The position numbers were made by a program, and so were the translations under genes. From Patescibacteria group bacterium (GTDB lineage Bacteria; Patescibacteriota; Minisyncoccia; Minisyncoccales; CG1-02-41-26), in assembly GCA_023474835.1 (NCBI GenBank), contig JAMCXQ010000034.1, positions 1 to 34,718 of the forward strand: a DNA stretch of 34,718 nucleotides, read 5' to 3'. This document shows positions 4,250-33,823 of the stretch, piece by piece. The notes below the pieces were generated by a model. That model was given only the letters and a program-made list of their open reading frames with translations, searched no databases and had not been told where the DNA came from. Every line of letters begins with the position of its first letter. The stretch's first letter is position 1.

Positions 4250-5884
4250 ATGACCACCAAATACATTTTTGTTTCGGGCGGAGTGATTTCCAGTTTGGGC
4301 AAGGGAATCACCGCCGCTTCCATAGCCAATCTTTTGCAGGCCAAGGGCTACAAAACCACCAATGTCAAGTGCGAAATGTACGTCAACATTGACGCGGGCA
4401 CCATACGGCCAACCGAGCACGGCGAAGTTTTCGTGACCGGCGACGGCATTGAAACCGACCAGGACATCGGCTCATACGAAAGGTTTTTGGGCTTTGACTT
4501 GGGAAAAGAAAACTTTTTAACCACCGGCCAAATTTATCAGGAGGTTATCAAAAGAGAAAGAAACCTGGAATACGACGGCGAAGATGTTGAAGTGGTGCCG
4601 CACGTGCCCGAAGAAATAATCCGCCGTATAAAAGAAGCGGGCGAAAAAGCCAAAGCCGAATTTGTCATTGCGGAGCTTGGGGGCACGGTGGGGGAGTACC
4701 AGGGCGTTTTGTTTTTGGAAGCCAACCGGATGATGAAGCTGAAAAATCCCAAAGACATAATGCATATTCATGTTTCTTATCTGCCCATTCCTTCAACAGT
4801 GGGGGAAATGAAAACTAAACCGGTGCAGTATTCGGTGCGCACTTTGAACGCCGCGGGCATTCAGCCGGATTTCGTGGTTGGCCGGGCAGAAAAGCCGATG
4901 GACGACAAAAGAAAAGAAAAAATTTCGCTTTTTTGCGGGGTGCCCAAAGGAAACGTCATTTCCAACCCCGACGTTTCGTCAATTTACGAAGTGCCTTTGG
5001 TTTTGGAAGAGCAGAAAATGGCGGATAAAATCCTGGCTTATTTTGGCAAAAAGCCCCGAAAAAACGATTTAACGAAATGGAAAAACCTGGTCAAAAAAAT
5101 AAAAACGGTTTCAAACGAACTCAAAATCGGCATTGTCGGCAAATATTTTCAAACCGGTGATTTCACTTTGGAGGATTCCTATGTTTCAATAATTGAGGCG
5201 ATAAAGCACGCCTGCTGGGTGTGCGGGGTTAAGCCGAAAATCCAGTGGTTGGCCAGCGAAAAATACGAAAAAGACGGCTCGTCGGTGGCCGAGCTGAAAG
5301 AATACAGCGGCGTGATTGTGCCGGGCGGTTATGGCTCGCGGGGCACTTCGGGCAAAATTTTAGCCATTGAATATTTACGCAAAAACAAAATCCCGTTTCT
5401 GGGCCTGTGCTATGGAATGCAGCTGGCAGTGGTTGAATTCAGCCGCAATGTCGCCGCGTTTTCGGGCGCCAACACCACGGAAATTGACCCGAAAACGCCT
5501 CGTGCGGTTATCTGCTTAATGAGCGAGCAAAAGGAACTTTTGAGAAACAGGCAATACGGCGACACCCAGCGTTTGGGCAATTACGACTGCGAAATCACGC
5601 CGGGCACTTTGGCAAGCCGGGCTTACAAAAAACAAAACATTGTTGAACGCCACCGCCACCGCTACGAATTTAACAACAAATACCGCGATGTTCTGCAAAA
5701 CAAAGGTTTGGTTATAAGCGGCATAAATCCGCAAAGAAATTTAGTGGAGATTATTGAACTGAAAAATCACCCGTTTTTCCTGGGCACGCAGTTCCATCCG
5801 GAATTTAAGTCCCGGCCGCTTGACCCCCATCCCTTGTTTGTGGAATTTGTCAAAGCGAGCAAAAGCCGCGAAATTAGCAGGTAA
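4250..5884 (+). CDS. pyrG: CTP synthase
   Basis: KYIFVSGGVISSLGKG, HGEVFV, GEMKTKP, GLCYGMQ, ERHRHRYE and QFHPEF. Confidence 0.98.
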   Translation: MTTKYIFVSGGVISSLGKGITAASIANLLQAKGYKTTNVKCEMYVNIDAGTIRPTEHGEVFVTGDGIETDQDIGSYERFLGFDLGKENFLTTGQIYQEVIKRERNLEYDGEDVEVVPHVPEEIIRRIKEAGEKAKAEFVIAELGGTVGEYQGVLFLEANRMMKLKNPKDIMHIHVSYLPIPSTVGEMKTKPVQYSVRTLNAAGIQPDFVVGRAEKPMDDKRKEKISLFCGVPKGNVISNPDVSSIYEVPLVLEEQKMADKILAYFGKKPRKNDLTKWKNLVKKIKTVSNELKIGIVGKYFQTGDFTLEDSYVSIIEAIKHACWVCGVKPKIQWLASEKYEKDGSSVAELKEYSGVIVPGGYGSRGTSGKILAIEYLRKNKIPFLGLCYGMQLAVVEFSRNVAAFSGANTTEIDPKTPRAVICLMSEQKELLRNRQYGDTQRLGNYDCEITPGTLASRAYKKQNIVERHRHRYEFNNKYRDVLQNKGLVISGINPQRNLVEIIELKNHPFFLGTQFHPEFKSRPLDPHPLFVEFVKASKSREISR

Positions 5885-5888
5885 ATTT

Positions 5889-6278
5889 ATGGATTTTTCT
5901 TTGTCAAAAAGAATTCAAAAAGCCCCAAAACCTGTCAGCGACAGCCAGCCGGCTGGAAAGCCGGACTTCCAAAGGCCGCGGGTTTCAAAAAACATTTTTG
6001 GCGTGAGCGGTTTTGCTTCGCGGCTGAAAATGCAAAAAAGTTTGGCAAAATCATACAGCGAAATAAAAAAAGTGCCGGTTTGGAAAATTGACAAAACCAA
6101 AGAACAGGAAATTTTTCAGCAGTTTTTCCCCGATAAAACCCAGAAACCGTTTTTCAGGAAGCCGGATGTTGCGGAAAACCTGCGTTCGTGGAGTAAAGAA
6201 AAAATCTGGGCAAAAGGCAGGCAAAAAGCCGACCTGATTGAAAAAATCCAAATCCTCAAAAAAGCCAGCGGAGTTTAA
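5889..6278 (+). CDS. Hypothetical basic protein
   Basis: ORF starting 4 nt after the pyrG stop; no recognisable motif. Confidence 0.55.
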   Translation: MDFSLSKRIQKAPKPVSDSQPAGKPDFQRPRVSKNIFGVSGFASRLKMQKSLAKSYSEIKKVPVWKIDKTKEQEIFQQFFPDKTQKPFFRKPDVAENLRSWSKEKIWAKGRQKADLIEKIQILKKASGV

Positions 6279-28273: not shown

Positions 28274-29121
28274 AGTTCAATTTTCGTACCAAAAATTCTT
28301 CAAAAATGTTGATTTTAAGCCCGAAACCCGCTCTTTGAAATTCAAATTTCTGTGATTGTATTTCCAGACATATTCTCCAAGGAAGAGAGGCAGTTTTTCT
28401 CGTCTAATTCCACCCTTGGCCGATAGCTTTCTTTTCAGATATCCCCAGAAACCTTCAAGGCCGTTAATATGGTGCCCTTTGCCGTCAGTGTATTCTTTTT
28501 TACCGTGGTCAACCAATCGGTGAACATATCCTTTAGCGGCTAATCCAGTGTAAGCCCTCCAACCATCAGAGCAAACCACCGAACCCTTAATGACTTGTTT
28601 TTCAATGAGTGGTTCCAAATCCTTGGCTTCCGTGTCCTTGACTATTTCAGCCCAGACCTTTCCTTCGCGGCACAAAATGCCAAACACCGGCTGCTTGATT
28701 GTTCCAAACCCCCGTCTGTTCTTGCTGTATTTACAACGTTCCGACAATCTCCTGTTTTTCATCTGACCGCCCAAGTATGTTTCGTCTACTTCCACTATTC
28801 CAGAAAAAACATCAGGCACCTCTTTAGCCATCGCTATCCTTAACAGAGTTAAAATTTTCAACAGTTTGTATTTGGAAATTTCAACTCTGGCAAGAATGGT
28901 ATCGGTGGAATGTTCCAACAAAAATTCTTCAATGATATTTTTTAAGATTGCTGGCTTTAATTTAAATGGATGATTTTGAAAAGTGAAGACCGAACGGCAT
29001 TGTTTACATTTTAACCGATTATCGTTTAATTGCCAAAAGTCCTTTCCTTTACAGGTTTTGCATTTGATGACCATACCTAATTTCATTGTAGTGTATTAGG
29101 TACGATTTTCAAACTTTACCC
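28268..29121 (-). mobile_element. IS1595-family insertion sequence (IS1016-like), ~850 bp
   Basis: Imperfect terminal IRs GGGTAAAGTTcaatttTCGTACC (28268-28290) and GGGTAAAGTTtgaaaaTCGTACC (reverse complement of 29099-29121) enclose the transposase. No 8-bp target duplication is visible. Confidence 0.88.
28277..29086 (-). CDS. IS1595-family DDE transposase
   Basis: N-terminal CKTC/CKQC zinc ribbon; VEVDETYLGG, KQPVFG, VCSDGWRAY and HINGLEGFW. Confidence 0.93.
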   Translation of the reverse strand: MKLGMVIKCKTCKGKDFWQLNDNRLKCKQCRSVFTFQNHPFKLKPAILKNIIEEFLLEHSTDTILARVEISKYKLLKILTLLRIAMAKEVPDVFSGIVEVDETYLGGQMKNRRLSERCKYSKNRRGFGTIKQPVFGILCREGKVWAEIVKDTEAKDLEPLIEKQVIKGSVVCSDGWRAYTGLAAKGYVHRLVDHGKKEYTDGKGHHINGLEGFWGYLKRKLSAKGGIRREKLPLFLGEYVWKYNHRNLNFKERVSGLKSTFLKNFWYEN

Positions 29122-29139: not shown

Positions 29140-29172
29140 AAGCGTGGCATGAGTTGTCACGCTTTCTTTTTC
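29140..29172 (+). terminator. Intrinsic terminator downstream of the IS
   Basis: AAGCGTGGCA-TGAGT-TGTCACGCTT followed by TCTTTTT. Confidence 0.65.
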
Positions 29173-29183
29173 TCAAAAAACTA

Positions 29184-29211
29184 TTGACAAAACTTTTGTA
29201 ATGAGTAGTAT
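29184..29211 (+). promoter_or_regulatory. sigma70-type promoter of the T-box leader
   Basis: TTGACA(29184)-16 bp-TAGTAT(29206). Confidence 0.65.
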
Positions 29212-29249
29212 AAACACATAAAAGAAAAAGTAATTTGTAATTCAATTAA

Positions 29250-29484
29250 AAGCGTTGACGGGGAGAATGGGCCCCCGAGCTGAACGGTGAAACTTGAAAA
29301 AGCGCGTAGCCGTCTCCGGAAGCTGTCCGTTATCATACAGCAGCCGATGTTAGTCGGCGCGACAAGGTTTGGCCTGCCATCAGGCGGGCTGAATAAAACA
29401 AGGTGGCACCACGTTTCTGTTTCTACAGAACCGTCCTTGTAAGATTTTTGCGATGTGCAGAAATTTTACAAGGGCGGTTTTTTT
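29250..29484 (+). promoter_or_regulatory. T-box riboswitch, Trp specificity, transcriptional
   Basis: T-box AAGGTGGCACCACG (29400-29413) pairs with CGTCCTTGT (29432-29440). Competing terminator 29431-29477 plus T7. Stem II, IIA/B pseudoknot and Stem III are recognisable. UGG specifier at 29268-29270; the downstream gene is trpD-like. Confidence 0.88.
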
Positions 29485-29553: not shown

Positions 29554-30882
29554 ATGTACACCACAGACATTAAACTGGATGGCAAATATTTGGATAAACA
29601 TTTAATGATGGAGTCGTTGGCAGTTCAGGAATACAGCTTTTCAAATGAAGCTAGAGCTCATCAGGATTTGCTGCAAAACGCTGATCCAATGATTTTGGCA
29701 AAGATTGCTGAATCTGTTAAAAATGGAGGACTATCCTTTGAGGATTCCTTTGTCGGTATGCTGTTGGTTTTGGCGGCAACTAATAATCATATCCGCTTGG
29801 CTATTTTCCCCAAAATGACTTTCCCTGAAGCTATTTCAAAGGGAACGGGATTTTTGACAATAATGGCTCAAAAAGAGTTTTCTTACGGATTAACTCCGGA
29901 AGAAATCGCAGGTATGGTTGGGGCGGCAACGCTTGACATCATATTTAGATGCCCCGCATTTGAGGTGTTAGAAACATGCGGGATGGGCGGAGATAGAGGT
30001 TTTGGAACCAAAAAAGTAAAAACTATCAATGTTTCAACGTTAAGCGCTATCGTGCTTGCCGCAATGGGTTATGAGGTATTCAAACATGGTTCTCATGGGA
30101 ATACCACAAAAATAGGTTCAGTGGATATCCCTGTCAACTTCGGGGCAAAAATATGCCTTCATTCAAAAAATGCGATTGTGGATTTATTTGAAGAAACGGG
30201 CTTTTGGTTCAGCGATGCGCATAGTGTAAAAACTATCCACTATTTGTCTCATCTTCTGATGATTGAGACAATAAATCATATTATTGGTCCGATGACAATA
30301 CCTCTTGCCCACGGAGCTCGCTTGTTAAAGGTTATGGGGGTTAACCATCACGTTTCTCCTGAAACTATAGCAAGAGCATACACGATTTTGCATAAAAAGG
30401 GCTTTCTAAATCTTGGCGGGGTTATTGTTTTAGCTGGAGTAGACACCGTGCCGAACGAACAGCAATTGCAGGATGGTAGATGGGCTCAAAAACATAGTTT
30501 TTTGGATGAAGTTTCCCCAATTGCCACTGTCGCAAGTTTAGCTACAGGTGAAAATTTTGTGGGCAATTTCTTGTTTACCGATGATAGTTTTGGCTGTGGG
30601 GTATTAGCGCCTGAGAAATTAAAAATAAAGAACGAAGAGCAGGATTTGATGCGGGCGAATGAACTCGCCATAAGAGGAGAAGATGAAATTCTAACAGATT
30701 ATTTGGCAAGAAATGCCGCTATTGGATTAATGTTACTGAAGGGTAACGTCAACGGAGAGGATATCAATAATCTGCCGGCGTTTTACAAAGAATGCCTACA
30801 GAGCATTAAATCCGGCGATGCGTTTGAGAAGTTACTGGAATACATTGAAGCGTCTGGCGGCTCTTTCAGAAGTTGGCTTTAA
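29554..30882 (+). CDS. trpD: Divergent anthranilate phosphoribosyltransferase (TrpD-like) with N-terminal extension
   Basis: ETCGMGGD, KTINVST, KHGSHG..TKIGSVD and LDEVS correspond to TrpD DxCGTGGD, TFNIST, KHGN and DE motifs. AGGAG SD and Trp T-box lie upstream. Confidence 0.75.
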   Translation: MYTTDIKLDGKYLDKHLMMESLAVQEYSFSNEARAHQDLLQNADPMILAKIAESVKNGGLSFEDSFVGMLLVLAATNNHIRLAIFPKMTFPEAISKGTGFLTIMAQKEFSYGLTPEEIAGMVGAATLDIIFRCPAFEVLETCGMGGDRGFGTKKVKTINVSTLSAIVLAAMGYEVFKHGSHGNTTKIGSVDIPVNFGAKICLHSKNAIVDLFEETGFWFSDAHSVKTIHYLSHLLMIETINHIIGPMTIPLAHGARLLKVMGVNHHVSPETIARAYTILHKKGFLNLGGVIVLAGVDTVPNEQQLQDGRWAQKHSFLDEVSPIATVASLATGENFVGNFLFTDDSFGCGVLAPEKLKIKNEEQDLMRANELAIRGEDEILTDYLARNAAIGLMLLKGNVNGEDINNLPAFYKECLQSIKSGDAFEKLLEYIEASGGSFRSWL

Positions 30883-30912
30883 TAATATATTAAAGCCAAA
30901 TGCGTTAAGTAA

Positions 30913-31755
30913 TTACTTAGCGCATTTCTTTTTTTGTATAATGGCCTTTACAAAACCTTTTGTTTTAACAAGATCTATCTTAGCTTGCCATGGCTTTAAA
31001 TTCACCTCCGTTTTTTTTGATCGCTTTGCCCCCGATTTTAGAGATGTTGCTACGATTACACCGTTGGCGTATCGCAGAAGTGTTTTTACATTCTCTTTTG
31101 TAGCTCCACTGCCGACAAAAATTGGAAAGTCGTCCCCTGCTACCCCTCTTGCTTCTTTTAACTCGTCAAGATTGGGCATATCCCCTGTCCACTTTCCAGT
31201 AATGATTAAACCATCAGAGCCATTTTGTTTCGCTTCTCTGACGGATTGGGTAATAGTTTTTTGCTCAAGCATTTCCGCGTGTTTAACATGAATATCGGTT
31301 AGCAACGCAACGTCTAAGGCGCCAATATTTTTTCTGAATTTCAAAACATCTTCTGGATTAACCATTATTCTCCCGTAGTCAGTTTTGACGCTATCAACAA
31401 AAACAGGCACTCTTATAAATTGACAATTGCAGATTTTTGCAATTGACAAGGCCGTTTTATAATCATTCCATAAAACGCAAATTCCCAATGGAATTTTAAT
31501 TTCATTTTTTATTTTAGATATTAAAAATGTCATTGTTGCAACAGTTTCTGGTCCCACAAAAATTTTATGCGGAATATCATAATTATTTTCTACCATTATG
31601 GCGTCAACCCCGCCTTTTTCTAATGTTTTTGCATCCCGTAACGCCTTTTTCAAACAAACATTAACCTCAGGAAAATTCTTATACCCCAAAAGCGGCGGGA
31701 AATGGACCATTCCTATTATTATATTTTGTTTTTTGTTGAATATTTTTTCTAGCAC
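30913..31755 (-). CDS. BtpA/SgcQ family TIM-barrel protein
   Basis: IIGMVHFPPLLG, GVDAIMVEN..D.P, DIHVKHA, DGLIITG..TG and VGSG; GTG start. Confidence 0.92.
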   Translation of the reverse strand: MLEKIFNKKQNIIIGMVHFPPLLGYKNFPEVNVCLKKALRDAKTLEKGGVDAIMVENNYDIPHKIFVGPETVATMTFLISKIKNEIKIPLGICVLWNDYKTALSIAKICNCQFIRVPVFVDSVKTDYGRIMVNPEDVLKFRKNIGALDVALLTDIHVKHAEMLEQKTITQSVREAKQNGSDGLIITGKWTGDMPNLDELKEARGVAGDDFPIFVGSGATKENVKTLLRYANGVIVATSLKSGAKRSKKTEVNLKPWQAKIDLVKTKGFVKAIIQKKKCAK

Positions 31756-31762
31756 AAATAAA

Positions 31763-32707
31763 TTATCTTTTATTTAGGCGGAATATTAAGTTGATAAAAT
31801 CCTCAATAAACTTTTGCCCATCAATTTTAACAGCCACTTTAACATTGGGGTTTTTCGACGCTGCAATTCGTCTTTCCGCAACTGACATTCCAAAAGTATA
31901 TTCCCCATTTGTTTCAATTTTTATATCCATTTCTTCAAGTTGGAAAGCATCTGGATTTATCAAGTAATAAGCCGCTAATGGGTCATACATCAAAGCTCCT
32001 GCTATTCCATCAAATTTTTTGAGATTTTCAATGTAAGGAATTAACATTTTAGATAAAGTTTTGCCAATTAATCCGCTTTGCCCAATTTCTCTAATTGCGT
32101 TTTCTGGTAAAATAATGTCATTGCAAGCATCTAACGGAATTAGAACTTTTTCTACTTCTGAATCAAAAATAATTTTTGCGGCTTCTGGGTCAACAAAAAA
32201 ATTAAATTCCGCTACCCTGTTTTTATTGCCTGGCACAGTAATAGCTCCACCCATTATAATTACTTGCTTAATCATTTTTGGTAAAGATGGGTCTTTTAAA
32301 AAAGCTTTTGCGATATTGGTCAATGGCCCAAGAGTTAGCAGGGTTATTTCTTTGGGATCTTGTTTGACAATTTCAATAATTTTGTCAGACGCCTCATCTA
32401 TCGTTGGTTCTAACGGTAAACTTTCAGCACCAGAACCGTCTAATCCAGAAATTCCATGCACATTTGCCTTAATTAAATCTCGCTCAATGGGCTTTGATGC
32501 TCCAGCGTAAAGTGGAATATGCTCTTTTTTGGCTAAATTCAAAATATACTTGGCATTACGCGTGGTGTTTTCAATGGTGCTATTTCCAGCCACAGTAGTT
32601 ATTGCCAATATTTCTATCTGTGGAACAGCAAAAAGCATCAACAAGGCCATGGCGTCGTCATGGCCTGGATCCGTGTCAATAATAATTTTGTTTTTTTCTT
32701 CTACCAT
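31763..32707 (-). CDS. Nucleoside hydrolase (IUNH family)
   Basis: IIIDTDPGHDDAMA Ca-binding motif, TTVAGN, HGISGL, LGPLTN, MGG and AEFNFFVDPEAA. Confidence 0.95.
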   Translation of the reverse strand: MVEEKNKIIIDTDPGHDDAMALLMLFAVPQIEILAITTVAGNSTIENTTRNAKYILNLAKKEHIPLYAGASKPIERDLIKANVHGISGLDGSGAESLPLEPTIDEASDKIIEIVKQDPKEITLLTLGPLTNIAKAFLKDPSLPKMIKQVIIMGGAITVPGNKNRVAEFNFFVDPEAAKIIFDSEVEKVLIPLDACNDIILPENAIREIGQSGLIGKTLSKMLIPYIENLKKFDGIAGALMYDPLAAYYLINPDAFQLEEMDIKIETNGEYTFGMSVAERRIAASKNPNVKVAVKIDGQKFIEDFINLIFRLNKR

Positions 32708-32782
32708 AGAGATTAGAGGTTCAAATTATCTTTGTATCTCTTTTAAAATAAATTATAGCATTTGATTAGAATAAAATAAATC

Positions 32783-32819
32783 AGGGGAGTATTCAACTAA
32801 TTGAAATTCTCCCCTTTTT
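32783..32819. terminator. Hairpin between the EamA and nucleoside hydrolase genes (probable terminator)
   Basis: AGGGGAG..TTCAA-CTAA-TTGAA..CTCCCCT with A/T-rich flanks. A minus-strand TGC-TATAAT (32760-32752) follows, a possible promoter for the hydrolase. Confidence 0.55.
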
Positions 32820-32831
32820 GAATTGGTTATT

Positions 32832-33821
32832 TTATTTTTTCTTTCGTAGATAAAAAACACCTAAAAAGGTAACAATCGCCCCTGCGGAACGCATTGCCCA
32901 AGAAGTCCATTCTTCGGGGATTCCATTACCGAATGCTCCTGGGGACAAAATATTACCTATTGCAGTGATGGGCACGCCCATCGCAATCTTGGAGTTAATC
33001 AGTAAAAATACTACGGTTAAAGATTCGAATTTTAAGGCTTTTTGAGATAAGACATTATAAAGAGAGGCCAAAACCATCGTGATAGCAATCCACACAAAAG
33101 CGTTGAGATTTAGCATGCTTCGCATTTCTAACAAATCACAGAATTTCCCTCTTATTAACGCTAGGGAAGGTACGAGAATTGTGGCCACAGCGCTAAGCCA
33201 TATAAACCGCCATAAGCTAAAGGTCACGGCATCAGCGCTTTTTACTCCTTTCTTTCTGGTTCCATCCCCGAAAGCATTCAAACCAGAACATACAATAGCA
33301 ATAAGCACAACGCCCCAAACAGTAATTTTGATATTATCGGATATATGCTGTATGGAAGCCATGATAGAACCGAGAATTACTAAACTCGCTGGTAATAAAA
33401 TATTTTTTCCTTTTATATTTTTCTTAATCACATCGTACATTGCCATGTAAAAGACAGCACAACATCCTAATATCAAAATTAAAGAAGGATCTAACATTTG
33501 GCTGCCTCTAAGATAAAACAGAGTAGAAGTAGCTCCAAAAATTCCTGACAAAGCGGCATACTTGTGCATATTTCTTGTCCCAAAAGTAAATCCTGGATAT
33601 TCTGGATCTAATTGCTTCCCAAATATTTTATTACATATTAAAACGCATATGATATACACCCATGATCCTACCACTAAGTAAAACGAAGCAGCTGTAATTT
33701 GATCTTGAGAGGTAATCACACTGCGTACGATGTAGTTATCTATCGCTGCGTTTAGCGAAGTGAATAACGCTGCGATTAGAGCGATGGTCAAGACCCCTTT
33801 CGATACTTTTTCTCTATTCAT
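32832..33821 (-). CDS. EamA/DMT-like membrane transporter
   Basis: About 10 hydrophobic segments in two halves; GGAGG SD overlapping the trpS 3' end. Confidence 0.65.
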   Translation of the reverse strand: MNREKVSKGVLTIALIAALFTSLNAAIDNYIVRSVITSQDQITAASFYLVVGSWVYIICVLICNKIFGKQLDPEYPGFTFGTRNMHKYAALSGIFGATSTLFYLRGSQMLDPSLILILGCCAVFYMAMYDVIKKNIKGKNILLPASLVILGSIMASIQHISDNIKITVWGVVLIAIVCSGLNAFGDGTRKKGVKSADAVTFSLWRFIWLSAVATILVPSLALIRGKFCDLLEMRSMLNLNAFVWIAITMVLASLYNVLSQKALKFESLTVVFLLINSKIAMGVPITAIGNILSPGAFGNGIPEEWTSWAMRSAGAIVTFLGVFYLRKKK

Positions 33822-33823
33822 TT

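Follow-up and report, generated by a model that had tools for sequence, protein, structure and literature searches.

A T-box leader with an ultrashort Stem I and an intrinsic terminator ahead of a TrpD-like gene in a Patescibacteria genome

T-box riboswitches have been sorted into classes I–IV (PMC10482949, 2023), and the leader RNA that we describe here shares features with more than one of them. It lies at positions 29252–29484 (+) of a 34,718-nucleotide (nt) stretch of DNA from a Patescibacteria group bacterium (GenBank assembly GCA_023474835.1, contig JAMCXQ010000034.1), which we call the window, and it precedes a gene for a TrpD-like protein. In the published descriptions consulted, class III depends on Stem II and has a short Stem I whose apical loop is a penta- or hexanucleotide, and classes III and IV "mostly regulate translation initiation" (PMC10482949). 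The review literature places T-boxes with an intermediate or ultrashort Stem I among the translational ones, mostly from Actinobacteria. All ultrashort T-box RNAs are described as regulating ileS and responding to tRNA-Ile (10.1101/2023.02.28.530422), and a 2026 review still equates the ultrashort form with the ileS translational class (PMC12990946). An earlier prediction for the window, made from its letters alone, had likewise said that ultrashort Stem I is known chiefly from Ile-specific translational ileS switches of actinobacteria, in agreement with these descriptions. The TBDB paper applies its translational model to Actinobacteria and to matches with a truncated Stem I, and "Candidatus" is absent from its main text (PMC7778990).

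The nearest described system is the class III ultrashort ileS T-box of Mycobacterium tuberculosis, M. smegmatis and Nocardia farcinica (structures 6UFG, 6UFH and 6UFM; PMC7583486, PMC12990946). The window leader shares with it a short Stem I without the elbow-binding double T-loop, a specifier plus purine in the apical loop, a basal kink-turn (K-turn), a Stem II with an S-turn, a IIA/B pseudoknot and a canonical T-box bulge; the Stem II domain that class III requires is present here and covaries. It differs in having an intrinsic terminator where class III has a Shine-Dalgarno sequestrator, in joining Trp to a TrpD-like gene rather than Ile to ileS (10.1101/2023.02.28.530422, PMC7583486), in an apical loop of 8 nt rather than 5–6 nt (PMC10482949), in a covarying extra linker hairpin, and in its host, which is of the candidate phyla radiation (CPR) type and not an actinobacterium. 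Class IV, with an intermediate Stem I (for example, Actinomyces odontolyticus ileS; PMC10482949), also has Stem II and no elbow platform, but the specifier of the window leader is in the apical loop instead of a side bulge and its output is a terminator. With the class I transcriptional T-boxes (RF00230) the leader has in common the K-turn, the Stem II S-turn, the IIA/B pseudoknot, Stem III, the UGGN bulge and an antiterminator opposed to a terminator; unlike them, it has no distal Stem I, with its specifier internal loop and S-turn, AG bulge and distal-loop platform. The B. subtilis tyrS leader is a class I example, and Trp-specific class I T-boxes occur before Firmicute trp genes.

Searches of the full text of papers found none that pairs the T-box riboswitch with Patescibacteria, with Saccharibacteria or with the candidate phyla radiation. 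Searches joining T-box and Stem I with Parcubacteria, Microgenomates, Patescibacteria or CPR gave no "t-box" among the matches listed, and "T-box riboswitch" with metagenom- gave no CPR leaders among the matches listed, judged by titles and abstracts.

Anatomy of the leader and a predicted mechanism

The segment 29252–29484 (+) is a genuine T-box leader. We predict, with a probability of roughly 0.85, that it acts as a T-box riboswitch that senses tRNA-Trp and regulates one gene, the TrpD-like one, through transcription attenuation. The observations behind this reading are the anatomy of the leader, the covariation of its helices, an antiterminator and a terminator that cannot form together, agreement with the tRNA-Trp genes and a gene context related to Trp. 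The elements are as follows.

29252..29280, +, ultrashort Stem I of 29 nt, read from the sequence: K-turn, C-C mismatch, 4-bp stem and apical loop
G29252-C29253 with G29279-C29280, +, closing stem of Stem I
GUU bulge 29254-56, with G29257-A29258 opposite G29277-A29278 (tandem GA), +, K-turn of Stem I, judged from sequence only
C29259 opposite C29276, +, C-C mismatch of Stem I
GGGG 29260-63 with CCCC 29272-75, +, 4-bp stem of Stem I
29264-71, +, 8-nt apical loop AGAAUGGG
29268-70, +, specifier codon UGG (Trp), which with the next purine, G 29271, forms the 3' end of the apical loop
29284..29313, +, Stem II, with base helix ACGGU 29284-88 / GCCGU 29309-13
GAA 29289-91 and GUA 29306-08, +, S-turn-type flanks of Stem II
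within 29284..29313, +, variable distal hairpin of Stem II, CUU-GAAA-AAG
CGGA 29317-20 with UCCG 29326-29, +, Stem IIA, part with the IIB pseudoknot of the element 29317..29341
loop GCUG 29322-25 with CAGC 29338-41, +, IIA/B pseudoknot
29343..29358, +, additional linker hairpin GCCGA-UGUUAG-UCGGC (GCCGA 29343-47 / UCGGC 29354-58), an insertion in the RF00230 alignment
29368..29393, +, Stem III by position, UUUGGCCUGCC-AUCA-GGCGGGCUGAA (29371-90 aligned as Stem III by RF00230), present in the minimum-energy and centroid folds
29400-13, +, T-box sequence AAGGUGGCACCACG, aligned to the T-box of RF00230
29398..29440, +, antiterminator: helix A1 ACAAGG/CCUUGU, 7-nt bulge UGGCACC 29404-10 and extended helix A2
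29431..29484, +, intrinsic terminator: 21-bp hairpin 29431-29477, then U7 29478-84 (terminator scan and fold)
29554..30882, +, gene predicted to be controlled, for a divergent TrpD-like protein of 442 amino acids (aa), with GGAG at 29542-45 (PF00591, 71.9 bits)

The original prediction had proposed most of this anatomy. Its Stem I of about 29 nt, with a K-turn, a 4-bp stem and a terminal loop containing UGG, is found in the sequence exactly where it was placed, as are Stem II with S-turn-like bulges and an antiterminator with a UGGC bulge followed by a strong terminator. Both hairpins that it put between the pseudoknot and the antiterminator exist, but their labels were interchanged: GCCGA/UCGGC, which it had called Stem III, is the linker hairpin, and its extra hairpin at about 29368–29393 is Stem III. 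The label moves because of the position of this hairpin beside the T-box sequence and because of the RF00230 alignment, and it is a matter of labelling only.

The RF00230 scan that had been proposed as a check matched 29246–29441 to model positions 1–219 with 45.7 bits and an E-value of 5.7e-9 (501 nt searched; E 1.8e-9 at genome scale), with the distal Stem I alone missing. The leader contains the 7-nt bulge UGGNACC of the T-box, in an antiterminator that competes with a terminator, and the K-turn, Stem II S-turn and IIA/B pseudoknot are present as sequence motifs, the K-turn from sequence alone. The distal interdigitated double T-loop platform by which class I leaders contact the tRNA elbow is absent; the 29-nt Stem I ends in a terminal loop, and this loop holds the specifier as in class III. 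The leader region folds with a z-score of -5.0, and none of 200 shuffles folded equally well.

In the mechanism that we favour, the short Stem I would rise from its K-turn through the 4-bp stem and present UGG and the following purine to the anticodon in the apical loop. The leader has no distal platform for the tRNA elbow; if it behaves like the ileS complexes of known structure, its Stem II S-turn and IIA/B pseudoknot would clamp the anticodon helix. Uncharged tRNA-Trp would pair its G73-C-C-A end with UGGC in the 7-nt bulge, stabilizing the antiterminator and allowing read-through into the gene. If tRNA-Trp were charged, or absent, the 21-bp terminator and U7 would form and transcription would stop at about 29484. 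What we infer in this scheme is the binding of tRNA, the part played by Stem II and the occurrence of termination in vivo.

Related leaders and covariation

Searching 101 related genomes with RF00230 gave 25 matches in 20 genomes, two of them above the cut-off; Stem I length classes were assigned to these matches by eye, not by an objective measure. Four of the 25, found without reference to the loop, have the AGAAUGGG loop: L002, which is the window leader, L015, L017 and L021. A search pattern was built on this loop and the 3' side of the K-turn, and it fixes the loop and the three inner stem pairs. It found 10 loci in a collection of species-representative genomes, in records labelled Collierbacteria, Gribaldobacteria, Dojkabacteria, Woesebacteria, Saccharimonadia, Saccharibacteria and Parcubacteria, with two labelled proteobacterial, and 16 loci in metagenome contigs. 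The 30 leaders collected reduced to 25 distinct ones, of which 24 are full length and one is cut by a contig end.

A covariance model, R1, was built from the 24 leaders. Over the GTDB family it found the Trp type in 4 of 39 genomes, all four known already, and no further one. Over 151 genomes sampled evenly across the phylum it found the AGAAUGGG loop in three other genomes. Two of these three leaders, L072 and L073, lie outside the reach of the pattern because their inner stem pairs differ (GAG/CUC and GGAGG/CCUCC).

The source genome (647,082 bases in 35 contigs, 93.8% complete) contains one other RF00230 match, before serS. This leader (L001 1501–1681, +; C33:11874–12054 of the source genome) is a short-Stem-I T-box that scores 67.5 bits and has 8 nt in place of 74 positions of the distal Stem I; UCC stands in its apical loop, its bulge is UGGC, and it has a terminator. 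Its neighbour is a cobalamin riboswitch (L001 1314–1406, −), ahead of a gene for a 416-aa exported-looking protein. The short-stem T-box design is widespread in CPR genomes and serves several amino acids. The original prediction had held that an ultrashort Stem I, a Trp specifier and terminator-type control would together make an unusual T-box; the combination is supported, but it is no one-off and is common in CPR genomes.

Homologous leaders had also been called for as a source of covariation, and the 24 provide it: 14 of the 21 pairs examined changed on both sides. Helices were scored on a MAFFT alignment (A2) of the 24 leaders, with 3' partners slid by 1–3 columns and 500 shuffles as controls. 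In the named helices, 94.2% of cells form standard pairs, compared with 23.6–48.7% with slid partners, and all six slid controls are beaten. None of the 500 shuffles reached any of five covariation measures, a count that is not a probability because the sequences are related and mostly pattern-chosen, which makes the slid control the fairer comparison.

Helix by helix, the predicted Stem II base ACGGU/GCCGU has four of five pairs changed on both sides (95.7% of cells paired), and the flanking GAA and GUAG are nearly invariant. All four pairs of the predicted GCUG/CAGC pseudoknot changed on both sides (95.8% paired), as did four of five in the linker hairpin (95.8% paired). Stem IIA, predicted as CGGA/UCCG, is present in the window, and three of its pairs are invariant or nearly so, but the fourth, A-U, is standard in just 9 of 24 leaders. 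MAFFT misaligned the outer pairs and the K-turn of Stem I, and the outer pairs were counted by script instead. By this count, every leader has 4–6 contiguous Stem I pairs and keeps the outer pairs, whose 5' partner is free in the pattern and which occur as G-C, A-U, U-A, C-G and G-U. A hairpin at the position of Stem III is also found in other leaders, where it is poorly alignable. The linker hairpin at 29343–29358 has a conserved loop, UGUUAG, and short-stem leaders for Ser, Asp and Asn have a hairpin at the same place. From four leaders, RNAalifold proposed that the specifier region pairs over a long distance with the T-box region. We rejected this helix, all of whose pairs are weak or do not vary and which is incompatible with the local helices that covary.

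Specificity, output and competing explanations

The first sizeable open reading frame (ORF) behind the leader is a Trp-family gene in 16 of the 24 leaders. The genes are distributed as follows.

10/24 leaders, TrpD-like (PF00591; 4 of the 10 just below the Pfam cut-off)
3/24 leaders, trpS (TIGR00233, 262–326 bits, above the cut-off)
2/24 leaders, trpB or TrpB-like (L015, TIGR01415, 635 bits; L021, PALP, with a full-length copy that is trpB at 613 bits)
1/24 leaders, anthranilate synthase I N-terminal domain (trpE)
1/24 leaders, phosphoenolpyruvate-synthase-like
6/24 leaders, gene without a Pfam match (in one case followed by a GATase gene)
1/24 leaders, no downstream DNA in the sample

The leaders found with R1 add an MBL-fold gene followed by trpS (L072) and a TrpD-like gene (L073). 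The bulge is UGGC in 23 of the 24 leaders and UGGU in one, L032. The original prediction had paired UGGC with the GCCA end of tRNA-Trp, and both tRNA-Trp(CCA) genes of the source genome indeed have G73 and an encoded CCA; the specifier UGG thus matches the CCA anticodon and UGGC matches G73-CCA, as expected if the leader senses this tRNA. A pattern search found tRNA-Trp with G73 in four other genomes (one gene examined in each) and no tRNA-Trp in one of five (G104).

Other short-stem leaders, read by eye, have at the 3' end of the apical loop a codon plus one base that matches the downstream synthetase. UCC or UCA stands before serS in seven of them, and also before one gene of no assigned identity; GAC precedes AspRS and AAC precedes a non-discriminating AspRS. 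The UGG-G of the window occupies the same place in the loop as these Ser, Asp and Asn codons. Three CPR leaders, L007, L014 and L020, resemble class IV in that a small extra hairpin sits above a side bulge that holds UGGG; L020 precedes trpE. L007, L009 and L014 combine a UGGU bulge with UUGGG in a Stem I of short or intermediate length, and both Trp and Leu are candidate specificities; behind them lie small ORFs without a Pfam match, or acylphosphatase and NUDIX genes.

The expression platform is uniform. Every one of the 24 leaders ends in a hairpin of 17–27 bp (-21.6 to -33.3 kcal/mol) followed by at least four U, and in each the 5' strand of the terminator is the 3' strand of the antiterminator. 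In the window, the terminator (-30.5 kcal/mol) and the antiterminator (-14.4 kcal/mol) have 29431–40 in common. For leaders truncated ahead of the terminator's 3' half, folding gives the bulged antiterminator as the optimum in 20 of 24. The start codon of the window gene, at 29554, lies 69 nt past the U-run.

Several points weigh against this account. Six of the 24 leaders precede genes without a Pfam match, one precedes a phosphoenolpyruvate-synthase-like gene, and one has no downstream DNA in the sample. The UGGU bulge of L032 is not matched by a change in the tRNA: the tRNA-Trp of its genome keeps G73, and the pair would therefore be a U-G wobble, with no covariation. In five leaders (L026, L035, L039, L040 and L051) the start codon lies only 6–20 nt past the U-run, and control of these may be mixed or have a translational component. 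As 22 of the 24 leaders came from the pattern, the invariance of the loop is independent evidence only in the model-found leaders, four from RF00230 and three from R1. The RF00230 score is below the Rfam gathering cut-off of 93 bits, because 4 nt replace 72 consensus positions of the distal Stem I; an Rfam scan of the window at gathering thresholds did not report the leader, and returned just a tRNA and a DUF3800-V RNA. Finally, reviews argue that without the elbow-binding platform a transcriptional T-box would capture tRNA too slowly, and if this argument holds, a platform-less Stem I with terminator control would be kinetically hard. L032 itself, a Trp leader, stands ahead of a TrpRS fused to a YbaK-like editing domain (4575–6080, −).

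The explanation that survives best beside ours, though we regard it as unlikely, is that the leader senses tRNA-Trp and acts mainly on translation, or at both levels, the hairpin before the U-run being a sequestrator or a stability element. The short-Stem-I T-boxes in the published descriptions consulted are all translational, and the five leaders with a close start codon fit this idea. In the window, however, GGAG 29542–45 lies about 58 nt past the terminator, in neither of the alternative helices, and a sequestrator has no need of the U-run that follows the hairpin here and in all related leaders. A terminator is the most likely output, judging from this arrangement.

A second alternative keeps the architecture and changes the tRNA. 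The 8-nt loop contains several triplets, and if AUG, GAA or GGG were the specifier, another tRNA would be sensed; the UGGC bulge would fit tRNA-Glu as well, which commonly has G73. We consider this very improbable, as leaders with AGAAUGGG precede trpS, trpB, trpE and TrpD-like genes and no genes for Met, Glu or Gly, and the matching codons of the Ser, Asp and Asn leaders stand in the place of UGG. An equally slight chance attaches to decay: a canonical T-box could have been stripped of its distal Stem I, for example when the neighbouring IS1595 element inserted, and have left the leader as a remnant without function. A transposase gene of this family lies directly upstream and the Rfam score is under the cut-off, but 24 distinct leaders of many lineages retain the short architecture and show compensatory changes, the serS leader of the same genome keeps it too, and every functional element of the window leader is intact. 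Least probable of all is a longer Stem I in which CGGGGA 29259–64 pairs with UCUCCG 29313–18, encloses Stem II and puts the specifier in a different loop: the original prediction had named this stem as one to exclude, and its six pairs can form completely in only two of the 24 leaders (the window and one other), 19 of the 24 leave its second position unpaired, whereas that base has a local partner in all 24, and forming it would cost the leader its K-turn and the Stem I hairpin that covaries.

The TrpD-like gene, its surroundings and their meaning

The 442-aa protein is a divergent member of its family. It scores 96.1 bits against TIGR01245 (trpD), for which the cut-off is 199, and all 24 of its PDB sequence matches are anthranilate phosphoribosyltransferases (best E 6e-12). 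Aligned with the 493-aa protein encoded behind L035, it is 33% identical over 482 residues. The GxGGD, KHG and DE motifs are kept in the alignment, and the Arg of the GxRTxFN stretch is not. TrpD-like proteins of this family (about 440–505 aa) are encoded by the commonest gene behind the Trp leaders, in 10 of the 24 and in one model-found leader: the window (29554–30882, +), L026, L035, L037, L038, L040, L041, L042, L046, L051 and L073.

By tblastn, we found no TrpB and no TrpE in the genome. Of the two TrpRS-like genes that the same program found, one lies in the window from 33824 onward; the genome has two different tRNA-Trp(CCA) genes. The TrpRS-like gene of the window adjoins a tRNA-Trp gene just beyond the window end, and BtpA and an inosine-uridine nucleoside hydrolase are encoded between the TrpD-like gene and the TrpRS-like gene. 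The features around the leader and its gene are as follows.

28277-29086, −, IS1595-family transposase gene, directly upstream of the promoter-like site of the leader
29140-29164, hairpin with a T-run, between the transposase gene and the promoter-like site
29184..29211, +, promoter-like site TTGACA, 16-nt spacer, TAGTAT (consensus scan, 10 of 12 matches; weak evidence)
30898-30927, second terminator (terminator scan), closing a one-gene unit
30913-34718, −, and C20:34719-35127, Trp-centred neighbourhood: BtpA, inosine-uridine nucleoside hydrolase, 329-aa ORF without a Pfam match, TrpRS-like gene and tRNA-Trp gene
8822-8917, −, DUF3800-V RNA (RF02964), 74.3 bits

The consensus scan found seven promoter-like sites across the whole region where 5.6 were expected, and the position of this one, about 35 nt before the leader, fits.

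The T-box family itself is known; what the published descriptions consulted do not have is the joining of an ultrashort decoding arm to an intrinsic terminator, for Trp and other amino acids, in CPR bacteria. Short-stem leaders are missed in the annotation of CPR genomes because their scores fall below the Rfam cut-off. We give about even odds to a broader proposal: that the usual T-box of the CPR (Patescibacteria) represents an undescribed class, in which a class-III-like decoding module without elbow contact is coupled to an intrinsic terminator for many amino acids (Trp, Ser, Asp and Asn in the leaders examined), in which the linker hairpin may replace the platform, and in which the Trp version places an orphan TrpD-like enzyme in a Trp-starvation response of organisms without a Trp pathway.

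If this proposal is true, the elbow platform would be dispensable for co-transcriptional tRNA sensing, which raises the question of whether the anticodon and clamping by Stem II are alone enough to capture tRNA within the time window of transcription. The Trp version would also mark the orphan TrpD-like enzyme, which is encoded near BtpA, a nucleoside hydrolase, a second trpS and a second tRNA-Trp, as part of the response to Trp starvation. The Trp leaders would thereby connect an uncharacterised family of TrpD-like enzymes to tryptophan limitation in organisms that have no Trp pathway.

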